From a virus (taxonomy: Duplodnaviria > Heunggongvirae > Uroviricota > Caudoviricetes): DNA of 11,916 nt. The stretch covers positions 1-11,916 of IMG/VR virus record IMGVR_UViG_2547132488_000014; one strand, written 5' to 3'. The notes beneath the pieces were generated by a model. It searched no databases and was not told the DNA's origin. It saw nothing but the letters and a program-made list of their open reading frames with translations. Position numbers and translations under genes: made by a program. This document shows, piece by piece, positions 913 through 4,369 of the stretch (positions are counted from its first letter, which is position 1; each line of letters begins with the position of its first letter).

Positions 913-1704
913 TTATGCTTCGATCGCCGTTTTGAGCCGTTGTGTTGCTACATCAAAATAATGATCACTGGTTTCTATACCAATAAATTTGCGTCCTGCT
1001 TTCAGCGCTGCAACACCCGTTGTTCCCGATCCCATAAAAGGATCAAGGACTGTTCCACCACTATTCGCAGTCCTGACCAGTTCTGCCATAAGTTCTTCTG
1101 GTTTTCCGGTCGGGTGCATTTTCTTTGATGGGATAACCGGGAACGTCATGCAGCCGTCGAACGGTCCCGAAGGCGATTTATCTAAATGGCCTTTACTGCC
1201 CCAGACGATGTATTCGCACTGATGCCGGAAATACCCCGTATGGGGTGTTCGTGACCCCCTTCCTTTGTTCCACGCAATGATGCCGCGCCATGTAAAGCCA
1301 CTGGCCTGAAACGCATCGGTTAAAGCTGGTAATTGTCGCCAGTCAGTAAATACCAGGGCATAACCGCCCGGCCTGACTGCGCGGTGTGCCTGTGCCATCC
1401 ATAATTGTGTCCAGTAAGCCCACGAACGGGCGTCCATGTTTTCACCCGCGAACCCATCAAAACGGTGAAGGCTCTCGCCGTTCAGATATTTTGCATGGCT
1501 GCCCTGGTTGGTGCGTCCGGCCTTGTGTGTCGCACCCGAACTGTAAGGCGGGTCAGTGATTAAGGCATCAATGCTTTCTGGCTCAATCAGCGGCAATATT
1601 TCCAGCGCATTCCCACGACAGAGCGTGGCATTGTCAGTCTGATAAACCTTAGTGTGTTCCGGTGTATGTGCTGGTTGGTGCTGGATTGCGATCCCCACGG
1701 TCAT
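913..1704 (-). CDS. DNA amino-methyltransferase, beta-class (N6-adenine or N4-cytosine), orphan: no cognate restriction gene in the window
   Basis: 263-aa ORF with motif IV DPPY (ITDPPYSS) N-terminal to motif I FxGxG (DPFMGSGTT), the circularly permuted order typical of beta-class N6A/N4C methyltransferases. ATG at 1702-1704. Confidence 0.88.
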   Translation of the reverse strand: MTVGIAIQHQPAHTPEHTKVYQTDNATLCRGNALEILPLIEPESIDALITDPPYSSGATHKAGRTNQGSHAKYLNGESLHRFDGFAGENMDARSWAYWTQLWMAQAHRAVRPGGYALVFTDWRQLPALTDAFQASGFTWRGIIAWNKGRGSRTPHTGYFRHQCEYIVWGSKGHLDKSPSGPFDGCMTFPVIPSKKMHPTGKPEELMAELVRTANSGGTVLDPFMGSGTTGVAALKAGRKFIGIETSDHYFDVATQRLKTAIEA

Positions 1705-1846
1705 AACTCCTCATGTGTGTGGGGTGCTCGATGGCTCTCGTTATCTGGTTAAGTGTTTTGCAGCGCGGACATTTTATTTCAATGTAGTGAAATGAGGCGC
1801 GGGCAAGTAGTTTGTTGCAATTTTTGCATCGTACATTTTGCGTCAT
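1649..1846 (-). CDS. com: Com-like zinc-finger protein (phage Mu Com family translational activator), overlapping the methyltransferase start
   Basis: Translation MTQNVRCKNCNKLLARASFHYIEIKCPRCKTLNQI... has a CxxC-N16-CxxC zinc ribbon closely resembling Mu Com as recalled (RCKNCNKLL...HIEI.CPRCK). ATG at 1844-1846 with AGAGG Shine-Dalgarno 8 nt upstream; an in-frame GTG at 1853-1855 is the alternative start. Stop at 1649-1651 is 55 nt inside the methyltransferase ORF, in a different frame. Confidence 0.7.
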   Translation of the reverse strand: MTQNVRCKNCNKLLARASFHYIEIKCPRCKTLNQITRAIEHPTHMRSYDRGDRNPAPTSTYTGTH

Positions 1847-1893
1847 TTGCGGCACCTCTTGTGTGGTTACTGCTGCCGATATGATAACAAATC

Positions 1894-1928
1894 GATCGTT
1901 TTTATCGATCGGATTTATTGCATCGATC
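1894..1928. promoter_or_regulatory. Cluster of three GATC (Dam) sites, each within ATCGATC, in the presumed promoter region of the com-methyltransferase operon
   Basis: GATC at 1894-1897, 1907-1910 and 1925-1928, embedded in aATCGATCg, tATCGATCg and cATCGATCt. Lies 50-80 bp upstream of the com start on the - strand. Resembles the three-GATC regulatory region upstream of the Mu mom promoter. Confidence 0.4.
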
Positions 1929-1976
1929 TGTTATGCCTATTGCTTATGTATGGTGCCCTCATTTGTGAGGGTAGCA

Positions 1977-2010
1977 AAAAGAAAACCCGCAGTTTTTACG
2001 CTGCGGGTTT
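1977..2010 (-). terminator. Rho-independent terminator downstream of the TM2-domain gene
   Basis: Stem 1985-1992 ACCCGCAG pairs with 2001-2008 CTGCGGGT, extendable by two A:T pairs. On the - strand it is followed by UCUUUUUG. Sits about 25 nt after the TM2 gene stop (2036). Confidence 0.7.
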
Positions 2011-3102: not shown

Positions 3103-4212
3103 TCACTCTGTTTCCGCTATCCATTCCGGGATTTTTGCCTCAAGCTCAAGCTGCGTGGTAAAGCCGCTGTTATCAATGGTGTGCTCGGCTTTTGCAATAA
3201 TCCAGTCCTGATTATCAATCTCGCTTTTAAATCCTGTTACCGTGCCATGCATTTCGGGGTAGAGTTCTGCACGTCCACGCGCCAGCGTGATGGAGAATGA
3301 TGCGGCTCCGCGTTGTAGCTGCTGCCACTTTGCCGCCGCTGCGCGTCTTGCTGCCTGCTCGTTCTGATAAGTCTTGCGTAACACAAACACATTGCCTTCC
3401 GCGCCTTCCATATAATCACCTTCACGGCTGCTGCTTTTCTCCTTTTTGGGCTTGGGCGGTTTGCGGCGTTTCACGCTGACTTTTTTCTTTTTCCCGTAAT
3501 TAAGATCAAGCCAGTAAGCGCGTACCCCCGTATACGCTTCGCGGTCAGCAATGCGGAACTGATGGCGATCGCCGCTGCTGCGTGTGATGGCAAACGATGG
3601 CAACGGCTGGCCCTGTGCGTTCACGCCGCCGCCGGGCATGATGAATAACAGATTACCGCTTTTTACCGTGGTGATTGCGCCCAGCATTTCCGCCATGCGC
3701 GTAAGGAAGGACATGTCGCTTTCTTCGGTCTGGTCGGCGTGGTCGATTTCGATATCCATCAGCATTTCGCTGATTTGCGGTTTCAGACCATACCGATGAG
3801 CGATGGCGGATACCACACGCTCAACGGTCACATCATGCCAGGACACCTCACGTTTAACGTTAAATTCATCCCGAAAATCTGCGCTTCTGGCTGAAACAGT
3901 CAGCCTGTCCGGCGGTCCTTCGTGAGCGATTTCATCAACAATGTAAGTGCCTTTTTCTGTCAGCGGTTCTCCCTTCCAGCCAATGAGAACCGTCAGGCGC
4001 GCGCCCCGTGGCGGTAGCTGCAACTGACCATCCGCATCATCCAGCATGATGGTGAGCTGGTCCGCCTCAAATCCCCGGTTGTCGGTCAGTGACAGGCTCA
4101 TCAGGCGCTCTGCCACGCCTGACAGCGTTTTACCCTCCGCGAGAATATCAAAATCCGGCATTTTCACGGGGTCTGTGCCCTGACTGAGCAATTGCATGGT
4201 GGTGTCGGTCAT
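3103..4212 (-). CDS. D: Tail protein gpD (P2 late control gene D family)
   Basis: Large ORF directly upstream of ogr on the same strand, about the size of P2 gpD. Start set at the internal ATG (4210-4212; MTDTTMQLL...), preceded by GGGAGGGAG. The ORF-track start at 4344 adds 44 residues with no ribosome-binding site. Confidence 0.85.
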   Translation of the reverse strand: MTDTTMQLLSQGTDPVKMPDFDILAEGKTLSGVAERLMSLSLTDNRGFEADQLTIMLDDADGQLQLPPRGARLTVLIGWKGEPLTEKGTYIVDEIAHEGPPDRLTVSARSADFRDEFNVKREVSWHDVTVERVVSAIAHRYGLKPQISEMLMDIEIDHADQTEESDMSFLTRMAEMLGAITTVKSGNLLFIMPGGGVNAQGQPLPSFAITRSSGDRHQFRIADREAYTGVRAYWLDLNYGKKKKVSVKRRKPPKPKKEKSSSREGDYMEGAEGNVFVLRKTYQNEQAARRAAAAKWQQLQRGAASFSITLARGRAELYPEMHGTVTGFKSEIDNQDWIIAKAEHTIDNSGFTTQLELEAKIPEWIAETE

Positions 4213-4369
4213 CTGCTCCCTCCCTGTGTGGCATGGTCGCATGTGCGTGCGGAGGGGGTTACTGCTTTTTGTTGTCGCCGTGGCGGGAGAATGGCGCAGG
4301 GGTGAGATTGCGCGCGTGGTGGGTGATGATTGTTGCCGAATCATTTAACGGATACAAGGGGCTGAAGCT

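Follow-up and report, generated by a model that had tools for sequence, protein, structure and literature searches.

A Mu com/mom-like control region preceding a predicted DNA adenine methyltransferase gene in a P2-like Escherichia coli prophage

Introduction

Regulation of the phage Mu com-mom operon by Com, by Dam and OxyR, and by the activator C has been described (PMC3378877, PMC6483171, PMC4461284). A preliminary description of the DNA considered here, an 11,916-nucleotide stretch analyzed in its entirety (the window), proposed that the same logic drives a DNA methyltransferase in place of Mom. The question raised by the locus is how much of the Mu control system is present, and what it would control. 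The two genes concerned form a minus-strand cassette in the variable cargo region next to att in an E. coli prophage that is P88-like (Xuanwuvirus, P2-like); their neighbors there encode a Hok toxin and a TM2-domain protein. Among 5,426 complete E. coli genomes, 182 (about 3%) carry the cassette, and it has already been annotated by PGAP. It is likely a self-contained, controlled DNA-modification cassette in which transcription would be gated by Dam and OxyR and translation by Com. This view is based on the family assignment of both proteins, on the homology to Mu, at the DNA level, of the elements that control RNA and DNA steps, on their conservation, and on covariation within the operator hairpin. 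Features are collected in Table 1.

Table 1. Features of the com-methyltransferase cassette and its control region (window coordinates)
Feature	Position	Strand	Basis and detail
Beta-class N6-adenine-type DNA methyltransferase, 263 aa	913..1704	-	PF01555, motif order
com, 65-aa four-cysteine zinc-ribbon protein, predicted RNA-binding translational activator	1846..1649	-	ATG 1846, PGAP start
Predicted translation-inhibiting hairpin	1693..1724	-	CCCCAC 1724-1719 pairs with GUGGGG 1698-1693
Com RNA operator GAGAGCC-AUC-GAGCACC-CC, within com coding sequence	1721..1739	-	Aligns with Mu 19-mer target GAAUGCCUGCGAGCAUCCC
9-mer TAACCACAC, collinear with C-site/-35 part of Mu Pmom	1861..1869	-	Alignment; Pmom oligonucleotide in PMC4461284
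Predicted sigma-70 promoter	1881..1908	-	-35 TCGATA 1908-1903, 16-bp spacer, TG 1889-1888, -10 TATCAT 1886-1881
Putative OxyR operator with three Dam sites	1891..1940	-	Mu-identical spacing, OxyR consensus, invariant GATC cores
G+C-rich strong hairpin followed by T-run	1983..2010	-	10-11 bp stem, 6 GC pairs, flagged on both strands

The com and methyltransferase genes

In a profile search the com product was assigned to Pfam family PF10122 (Zn_ribbon_Com) at 44.5 bits against a cut-off of 22.9 (E=1.1e-11), and over 42 aa it shares 60% of its residues with Mu Com. The N-terminal zinc ribbon of the family (CxxC-N15/16-CxxC) is present with the segments RCKNCNKLL and IEIKCPRCK, and all residues invariant in an alignment of 18 Com sequences (R6, C7, C10, K12, L13, L14, E23, C26, R28, C29 and K30) are retained. 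The small ORF had been described as Com-like with a CxxC-N16-CxxC spacing; the family assignment is thus confirmed by profile, but the actual spacing is C7-x2-C10-x15-C26-x2-C29, the x16 form being that of Mu Com. The translation start at ATG 1846 lies 8 nt after the Shine-Dalgarno sequence AAGAGG (1860-1855), and the GTG at 1855 given in the ORF listing (1855..1649) was rejected as a start because it falls inside that sequence. As proposed, com overlaps the beginning of the methyltransferase gene, by 56 nt for the 263-aa ORF 1704..913 (50-56 nt, depending on which start is used).

The downstream gene belongs to PF01555 (N6_N4_Mtase; profile search, E=3e-33). Its DPPY motif at residue 51 precedes FMGSG at residue 223, the order of the beta class (motif IV N-terminal to the AdoMet motif I, FxGxG), and its relatives in the PDB are all beta-class, in agreement with the class first proposed. 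DPPY rather than SPPY favors adenine as the methylated base, and adenine N6 would accordingly be the position modified, as judged from the motif. Two start codons are available after the Shine-Dalgarno sequence GAGGAG (1712-1707): ATG 1704 is only 2 nt downstream, whereas GTG 1698-1696 is 8 nt downstream and at the position of the mom GUG. The ATG is the less likely start, given this spacing and its absence from one variant (L136) in which GTGGGG is kept; Com-linked C5 methyltransferases likewise begin at this GTG. The best relative of solved structure is M1.HpyAVI (PDB 5HEK/5HFJ), a small beta-class N6-adenine methyltransferase matching over nearly the full length (E=9e-21), with the same motif order and compact size. 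It belongs, however, to a Helicobacter system rather than a phage and is a distant relative, so its recognition sequence is not transferable. A search among PDB, phage and plasmid relatives for target specificity found no characterized close relative, all being too distant or uncharacterized. Methylome papers on E. coli ST131, O145 and O111 and on Salmonella LT2 make no mention of this methyltransferase, nor does the M.EcoGII paper mention Com. PADLOC matched the methyltransferase to generic Type II and orphan methyltransferase models only, and gave no defense-system model for Com or the TM2 protein.

A methyltransferase "instead of Mom" is less of an oddity than was first thought. PF01555 membership of the downstream gene bears out the substitution itself, but among 45 genes downstream of Com homologues 31 encode DNA methyltransferases and only four encode Mom (PF25680), so that methyltransferases are the usual Com partners and Mom the minority (see also PMC3299994). 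Published pairs of Com with a methyltransferase include those of FluMu, Pnm1 and B3 (PMC3299994) and of the P2-like phage KS5 (PMC3091744).

The GATC block and the predicted promoter

Three GATC sites, as previously noted, are clustered upstream of com: GATC-I at 1928-1925, GATC-II at 1910-1907 and GATC-III at 1897-1894, each within GATCGAT. Their spacing of 18 and 13 bp is exactly that of the Mu Pmom region (19 and 13 bp in agn43). By count alone the cluster is mildly unusual, with 28 GATCs in 11.9 kb and a probability of about 0.06 for three within 35 bp anywhere in the window. The six best matches to the OxyR consensus in the 11.9-kb window all fall at 1891-1940, with scores of 14-15 of 20; on the same scale the validated OxyR sites of Mu and agn43 score 13 and 14. 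The block is a putative OxyR operator. Searched across 2.9 million viral contigs of IMG/VR, the exact spaced-GATC pattern was found 54 times, in 50 cases a short distance upstream of either a DNA-modification gene or a com gene that itself precedes one; 47 of the matches precede com and three precede a Dam-like methyltransferase gene.

The predicted sigma-70 promoter is the only promoter-like site between 1600 and 2100, by consensus match only. GATC-II overlaps its -35 element and GATC-III lies in the spacer. As in a Dam/OxyR switch, at least three GATCs are therefore inside an OxyR-consensus site that overlaps or abuts the promoter, the position of the promoter being predicted. Transcription would be expected to start near 1874. 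The TGnTATCAT sequence is conserved in phage Chuche, in L136 and in the E. coli copies, and a Citrobacter copy has TATACT at the same position. Farther upstream, the hairpin at 1983..2010 is predicted to be the terminator of the TM2-domain gene and may insulate the com operon from read-through.

Aligned with Mu com-mom, the window DNA is homologous from the GATC block across com and the Com target and on through the hairpin as far as GTGGG, beyond which the two sequences diverge. The likeness thus includes the 18/13 bp GATC spacing, the related Com protein, the bipartite Com RNA site, the hairpin with GUG in its 3' arm and the overlap of com with the next gene. The two loci differ in the gene controlled, which in the window encodes a PF01555 beta-class methyltransferase and in Mu encodes Mom (PF25680); in the element, P2-like here and transposable in Mu; and in a mismatch in the Com operator hairpin of the window. 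They differ also in the promoter. Pmom in Mu has a C-binding site, a T-run and a -10 element that are missing from the window, where the 9-mer of Table 1 probably survives from a Mu-type promoter; in Mu the 9-mer is followed by 43 nt (T-run, -10 and leader) that are absent from the window alignment, and the components of a weak C-activator-dependent promoter (C site, T6 run, 19-bp spacer) were likewise not found in that alignment. When Mu C and Mor were searched by tblastn against the window and the complete genome of phage Chuche, no hit was better than E=1. Matches to the Ogr-type box TGT-N12-ACA numbered only two in the window, neither placed for the com promoter, and an Ogr-activated late promoter was set aside for want of a suitably placed box, although P88-type boxes may differ.

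The OxyR site of Mu, as outlined in reviews, is positioned upstream of a promoter that requires an activator. The Mu promoter is thus downstream of the operator, and the predicted sigma-70 promoter of the window is inside it; because this geometry differs, the analogy is not exact. The transcriptional logic is similar to that of Mu but not the same, since the C-activated weak promoter is absent. The proposal of a Mu-like control system consequently stands as to the Com family, the DNA homology, the Com RNA target, the hairpin and the GATC/OxyR-consensus block, but not as to the C-activated promoter layer.

A promoter that needs no phage activator and is situated inside a Dam/OxyR operator makes heritable flipping in lysogens possible. 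The cassette could then be a phase-variable lysogenic-conversion switch, as are agn43 and gtr, with a heritable OFF state (OxyR-bound, unmethylated GATCs) and an ON state (methylated), and subpopulations of lysogens would differ in methylome. The missing C/Mor homologue in the complete Chuche genome, the lack of an Ogr-type box serving com, the conserved TG-extended -10 and the overlap of the operator with the -35 and spacer, as direct repression would predict, are all consistent with such a switch, as are the setting in a P2-like cargo region beside hok and TM2-domain genes and the near identity of the operator to the agn43 site. The same operator directly precedes a Dam-like methyltransferase gene in the three IMG/VR phages mentioned above, and this fits a further idea: if the switch exists and the enzyme methylates GATC adenines, its own promoter would be locked ON in a self-reinforcing manner. 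However, the same operator gives no phase variation in Mu, the E. coli prophage methyltransferases that have been studied are usually silent in lysogens (PMC5778455, PMC4659465), methylome support was not found in the papers searched, and Com gating together with likely toxicity points to late lytic use. Phase variation is considered unlikely, and so is the broader reading in which a heritable ON/OFF methyltransferase switch in E. coli and Salmonella lysogens follows from the replacement of the C-dependent promoter of Mu by an activator-independent sigma-70 promoter within the Dam/OxyR operator.

The GATC block might alternatively be an inherited relic with no regulatory role, so that the cassette is under the control of Com and of the promoter's own drivers alone. 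With the C-dependent part of the Mu promoter gone, decay could extend to the other parts as well; in one assembly (L006) a 32-bp deletion has removed all GATCs but one, L007 and L085 keep only two, and the count statistic given above is weak. Against this, among eight operator variants none of the 12 GATC-core positions varies, whereas 22 of the 26 neighboring positions do (Fisher p=7e-7). All three sites are present at the same spacing even where the methyltransferase of a variant has diverged to 74% identity, and the three GATCs are kept in each of five E. coli copies retrieved by BLAST. Decay without function thus appears quite improbable, and a working Dam/OxyR operator remains the preferred interpretation of the block.

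The Com RNA operator and the hairpin

The Com RNA operator fits the published Com SELEX motif NGAGNNCC(N)2-3GAGNNCCNN (PMC6483171). The bipartite motif was found at 34 of 44 Com loci, and in the operator hairpin, over 32 distinct operators, 123 of 128 cells are paired; the pairs formed by the NN positions covary, with 59 of 64 paired as compared to 39 +/- 2.7 in shuffles. In an enterobacterial subgroup that includes the window, one of the four pairs of the operator hairpin is mismatched (A.A or C.A), and Com affinity could therefore differ.

Situated just 3' of this GAGNNCC operator, with its one mismatched pair of four, is the hairpin predicted to hide the methyltransferase start. Its inner stem is CAUGA/UUAUG and its loop is part of the Shine-Dalgarno sequence (GGAG); both candidate start codons are base-paired, and the Mu sequence folds alike. 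Relative to shuffled sequences the folding energy is weak and not significant (z = -0.8 for the window and -1.25 for Mu), and comparative evidence was therefore relied on. The CCCCAC...GUGGGG pairing is invariant in five diverged cassettes, and a start codon in the 3' arm of a hairpin downstream of the operator was found at Enterobacteria, Haemophilus, Vreelandella, Marinomonas and Eikenella loci. These features suggest that translation of the methyltransferase would depend on Com. A search of the whole window against Rfam at gathering thresholds matched no family, neither the Com operator nor hok/sok being detected.

Since com reads through the hairpin, ribosome coupling could add to, or replace, opening by Com. 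With coupling in place of Com binding, ribosomes finishing com, which ends 47 nt beyond the GUG, would melt the hairpin and turn on methyltransferase translation, leaving Com with another role or none; the com ORF does span the entire hairpin and overlap the methyltransferase gene by the 50-56 nt noted above. Yet Mom translation in Mu requires mRNA-bound Com, according to literature cited in PMC3378877 and PMC6483171; covariation of operator sequence and hairpin is seen in 32 lineages and would not be needed for coupling alone; and at Haemophilus loci operator and hairpin are still kept although a gap of 10-56 nt separates the end of com from the methyltransferase gene. It is highly unlikely that coupling substitutes for Com. 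A DNA-binding transcription factor, as the PGAP name "Com family DNA-binding transcriptional regulator" would have it, is hardly tenable, the RefSeq product name being the sole support and a conserved, covarying RNA hairpin operator lying exactly at the Mu target position; the name is probably misleading.

A model for the cassette

In the preferred interpretation, combined Dam/OxyR and Com control, the sigma-70 promoter with its TG-extended -10 lies inside an OxyR operator with three Dam sites. OxyR would bind when the GATCs are unmethylated, or perhaps hemimethylated, and occlude the promoter; full Dam methylation would keep OxyR off and allow transcription of the com-methyltransferase bicistron. 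com would be translated freely, with the methyltransferase Shine-Dalgarno sequence and GUG/AUG locked in the hairpin. Com would then bind GAGNNCC-N3-GAGNNCC, which overlaps the 5' arm of the hairpin, and thereby open it and permit initiation. The enzyme would N6-methylate adenines in replicating phage DNA, so that progeny would escape restriction in the next host.

Relation to other systems

Com directly upstream of an adenine methyltransferase at the mom position is known for FluMu Hin1523, Hia5, Pnm1 Nme1821 and B3 ORF47/48 (Drozdz et al. 2012, PMC3299994), where the layout of operator and hairpin is also conserved and an anti-restriction role is presumed. Those loci are in Mu-like elements and, instead of a triple GATC operator, have 0-1 GATC within 150 bp upstream, and Hin1523, Hia5 and Nme1821 are Dam-related enzymes (D12-class, PF02086), as distinct from the beta-class PF01555 enzyme of the window. 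Closer in element and enzyme family are the overlapping com-methyltransferase pairs of the P2-like phages Burkholderia KS5 (gp21/gp20; PMC3091744) and Stenotrophomonas Smp131, both of the N6_N4 family, the Smp131 methyltransferase being 46% identical to that of the window. These pairs are known from annotation only, with control regions not described, and the KS5 cassette is between tail genes whereas that of the window adjoins att.

For the operator the nearest counterparts are agn43/flu and the Salmonella gtr loci (PMC3688519), with three GATCs within an OxyR site, at 19/13 bp in agn43. The agn43 24-mer CGATCGTTTATATCGATCGATAAG differs little from the com operator of Citrobacter, and the window can be aligned with the block; the gene that immediately follows the agn43 operator, however, encodes an outer-membrane autotransporter (flu). 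The agn43 operator, that of an established Dam/OxyR switch, lies downstream of the transcription start.

Implications

A methyltransferase under Com control is not a new arrangement but a familiar kind of phage anti-restriction module, and the concept of such enzymes replacing Mom is some 20 years old; the cassette refines existing knowledge and opens no new ground. What it brings out is the portability of the Mu com/mom control region as a module, in which the Dam/OxyR operator is combined with com, with the RNA operator of Com and with the hairpin ending at the GUG-GGN start. At the same GTGGGG this module is joined to Mom, to C5-cytosine methyltransferases (in L007 and L085) and to the beta-class adenine methyltransferase, so that in Enterobacteria at least three DNA-modifying enzymes unrelated to one another have been fused to it at an identical codon. 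The module also moves between Mu-like and P2-like phages.

Such tight gating suggests that the enzyme is harmful to the host, and the harm, by analogy, is probably due to a short or relaxed specificity, relaxed specificity itself being a guess. Non-specific enzymes such as Hia5 and M.EcoGII have proved useful as tools. The cassette thus marks a tightly gated, probably host-toxic methyltransferase, which could be a broad anti-restriction enzyme like those two.

Organization of the cassette and homology to phage Mu

Preliminary description of the cassette inferred a Com-like zinc-finger ORF overlapping the start of a beta-class methyltransferase, and profile searches bore this out: the small ORF lies above the cut-off for the Com family (Pfam PF10122, E=1.1e-11), the downstream gene is a PF01555 methyltransferase (E=3e-33), and its DPPY motif (residue 51) precedes FMGSG (residue 223), as in the beta class. 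The three clustered upstream GATC sites are likewise present. The cysteine spacing, however, had been misread as x16; it is x15 in the window Com, and x16 in that of Mu. The table below summarizes the layout.

Features of the com-methyltransferase cassette, in order of transcription
Feature	Position	Strand	Remark
Terminator, strong	2010-1983	minus	ends upstream TM2-domain gene
Three GATCGAT repeats	GATC at 1928-1925, 1910-1907, 1897-1894	minus	3' of terminator
Predicted promoter	-35 TCGATA 1908-1903; TG-extended -10 TATCAT 1886-1881	minus	prediction
Shine-Dalgarno AAGAGG		minus	followed by com ATG at 1846
com	ATG 1846 to stop 1649	minus	65 aa
Methyltransferase ORF	annotated ATG 1704 to end 913	minus	263 aa

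Pairwise DNA alignment of the window with Mu 35.6-36.0 kb revealed colinear similarity through four elements (the GATC block, the com coding sequence, the Com RNA target and the translation-inhibiting hairpin), and the com/mom-like reading of the architecture is thus right from the GATC block to the GUG where similarity ends. The Mu GATC sites (360, 378 and 391 of L003) are spaced by 18 and 13 bp, identical to the window. The Com RNA target is GAAUGCCUGCGAGCAUCCC in Mu and GAGAGCCAUCGAGCACCCC in the window (1739-1721), the latter a perfect fit to the SELEX-derived Com motif NGAGNNCC(N)2-3GAGNNCCNN (PMC6483171). The hairpin stem is UCCCACGG...UUGUGGGA in Mu and CCCCAC...GUGGGG in the window (1724-1693), where the loop holds the Shine-Dalgarno sequence and the 3' arm contains the start codon. 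Enterobacterial cassettes from Citrobacter braakii (L007) and from a Mu-like phage that sits within Stx phages (L085) share this operator and hairpin, with C5-cytosine methyltransferases fused at the identical GTGGGG, and a variant cassette with a 74%-identical beta-class enzyme (L136) keeps GTGGGG without the window's ATG at 1704. From these fusions, the L136 variant and the end of similarity at GUG, we conclude that the true methyltransferase start is likely GTG at 1698, 8 nt past GAGGAG, rather than ATG 1704. We further conclude that the control region is a module that recombination has joined, at the start codon, to various modification genes.

Conservation of the Com RNA operator

Among 80 collected genomic loci encoding Com relatives, 44 were examined for the operator, and 34 of these have a bipartite GA[G/A]NNCC-N2-4-GAGNN[C/T]C motif about 100 nt into com. 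Across 32 distinct operators the complementary motif halves form Watson-Crick or GU pairs in 123 of 128 pair cells, with six pair types at one position, and the two free NN pairs score 59/64 versus 39 +/- 2.7 in shuffles (0 of 2,000 as high). In the enterobacterial subgroup (window 1739-1723; L005, L007, L085, L136) one of the four operator pairs is always mismatched (A.A, C.A or A.C). A second hairpin trapping the downstream start codon follows the operator in many lineages. Hairpin energies were not significantly lower than those of shuffles, so the case for a functional RNA rests on conservation and covariation. In E. coli PE15 (L144), loss of 2 nt from the (CA)n run on the hairpin's 5' side, equivalent to window ~1715-1720, causes a com frameshift that shortens Com to 47 aa, leaving the zinc ribbon and methyltransferase intact.

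The GATC block as a putative OxyR operator

By count alone the GATC cluster is weak (p about 0.06). GATC is rarer than expected in the whole window (28 observed versus 38.7 +/- 5.6, with at least 28 in 198 of 200 shuffles), and against this scarcity across the prophage the triplet stands out. The block aligns with two textbook Dam/OxyR sites, those of Mu Pmom and agn43 (19/13 bp). The OxyR consensus reportedly defined by Toledano and colleagues in 1994, ATAGnTnnnAnCTAT-N7-ATAGnTnnnAnCTAT, was scanned over the whole window, and the six top matches (14-15/20) all fall at 1891-1940; by the same measure, the validated sites reach 13 (Mu) and 14 (agn43). In eight operator variants, one from a GATC-containing pattern search and the others from BLAST or Com-protein searches, the GATC-core positions are invariant and other positions vary at 22/26 (p=7e-7). 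All three GATCs are retained in 5/5 E. coli copies taken at descending ranks among the BLAST hits.

A search of 2.9 million viral contigs for the spaced pattern GATCGA-N12-GATCG-N8-GATCGAT gave 54 occurrences: 27 upstream of com and a window-type methyltransferase, 19 upstream of com-mom, 3 directly upstream of a Dam-like methyltransferase, 1 at a truncated Mu end, and 4 in unrelated GC-rich sequences. GATC triplets occur only in enterobacterial Com loci, with none or one in Neisseria, Acinetobacter, Methylophaga and other genera. A near-identical enterobacterial cassette in an assembly labelled Vagococcus sp. (L006 2350-2510), where the Firmicute label probably reflects contamination, has a single GATC owing to a 32-bp deletion between the first and third GATCGAT repeats.

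The same triple-GATC operator, with 18/13 spacing, is found in three IMG/VR contigs (L098 1044-1081, L099 3515-3552, L109 605-642). In L098 and L099 it precedes a D12 Dam-like methyltransferase (PWxGGKR...DPPY) by ~16-30 nt, and com is absent; the L109 flank, compared at the nucleotide level, is nearly the same as that of L098. Positive feedback is suggested by this placement of a GATC-methylating enzyme after a GATC-sensitive operator.

Genes paired with Com and possible role of the methyltransferase

That the cassette has METHYLTRANSFERASE instead of Mom is not unusual. Among 45 genes downstream of Com homologues (Pfam threshold E<=1e-5), D12-class adenine methyltransferases account for 23, PF01555 methyltransferases for 5, C5 methyltransferases for 3 and Mom for only 4, with 10 lacking a Pfam match at that threshold. 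Com with a methyltransferase was already described for FluMu, Pnm1, H. aegyptius (Hia5) and phage B3, together with possible Com sites at hin1523 (PMC3299994), and Com with an N4/N6 methylase for the P2-like Burkholderia phage KS5 (PMC3091744). P2-like phage Smp131 has the same gene pair.

The nearest solved relative of the window methyltransferase is M1.HpyAVI, and the closest in phages are Bordetella BPP-1 Bpm (53%) and the Smp131 (46% identical) and mycobacteriophage (about 46%) methylases; plasmid leading-region methylases are 28-29% identical. No characterised close relative was found among these solved, phage and plasmid relatives. The DPPY motif favours N6-adenine, and Mom is toxic to the host. 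Characterised Com-linked enzymes are non-specific (PMC3299994). From the latter two points we infer that the specificity of the window enzyme may be short or relaxed and that it may act against restriction.

Prophage context and distribution

The window corresponds to the end of a P88-like (Xuanwuvirus, P2-like) E. coli prophage where the tail and cargo genes lie; gpD, ogr and genes for the tail sheath, tube, tape measure and fibre are present. Beside the attachment site the order is ogr, hok, (TM2), com, methyltransferase; in free phage Chuche, integrase comes after the methyltransferase. The cassette was found in 182 of 5,426 complete E. coli genomes, where PGAP labels read 'Com family...' and 'DNA-methyltransferase'; Chuche's depositors named the genes 'gpCom control of modification' and 'DNA methyltransferase'.

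Several neighbouring features were also observed. Between ogr and com is a hok/gef-family toxin ORF (PF01848; 2468-2608, minus), for which no Rfam sok/hok RNA family reached its gathering score. A 98-aa membrane protein with zinc-ribbon and TM2 domain (PF05154; 2036-2332, minus) has its own terminator and is missing from Chuche at the matching position, and is thus variable cargo. The gpD-like ORF (3103-4344, minus) has 413 aa, versus 370 aa in Chuche; on identical sequence PGAP calls only an 801-nt gene and a partial pseudogene, so a wrong call or a rearrangement may affect the N-terminal region. A perfect 8-bp tandem repeat, TTCATCGC x9.2 (597-670), lies ~96 nt upstream of an AAA_15/AAA_21 ATPase gene (ATG at 501, minus) that continues past the window start and matches the PADLOC candidate defence gene HEC-04 (E=1.8e-203); repeat slippage could alter its promoter spacing. 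Beyond the HEC-04 gene and outside the window, adjoining raiA, a 99-aa C-terminal methyltransferase fragment (L001 1686-1985; 87% identity with the window enzyme) resembles a scar left here by a previous prophage of this type.

Departure from Mu at the promoter

Mu Pmom is a weak promoter needing the phage activator C (PMC3378877, PMC4461284). In contrast to Mu, 43 nt with the T-run, -10 and leader are absent from the window, and only TAACCACAC (1869-1861) is left. No C or Mor homologue was found in the complete Chuche genome, and the window has no Ogr-type TGT-N12-ACA box for the com promoter. A predicted extended -10, TGnTATCAT, lies 8 bp past GATC-III; Chuche, L136 and the E. coli copies all keep it, and Citrobacter has TATACT there; given its position close behind GATC-III, OxyR on the operator would directly occlude the predicted promoter.

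In summary, the cassette is a well-preserved, probably Com-gated phage DNA-modification module of already known type. Its one variant feature relative to that type is the predicted C-independent promoter inside the putative Dam/OxyR operator, which gives a modest chance of phase-variable expression of the cassette in lysogens.
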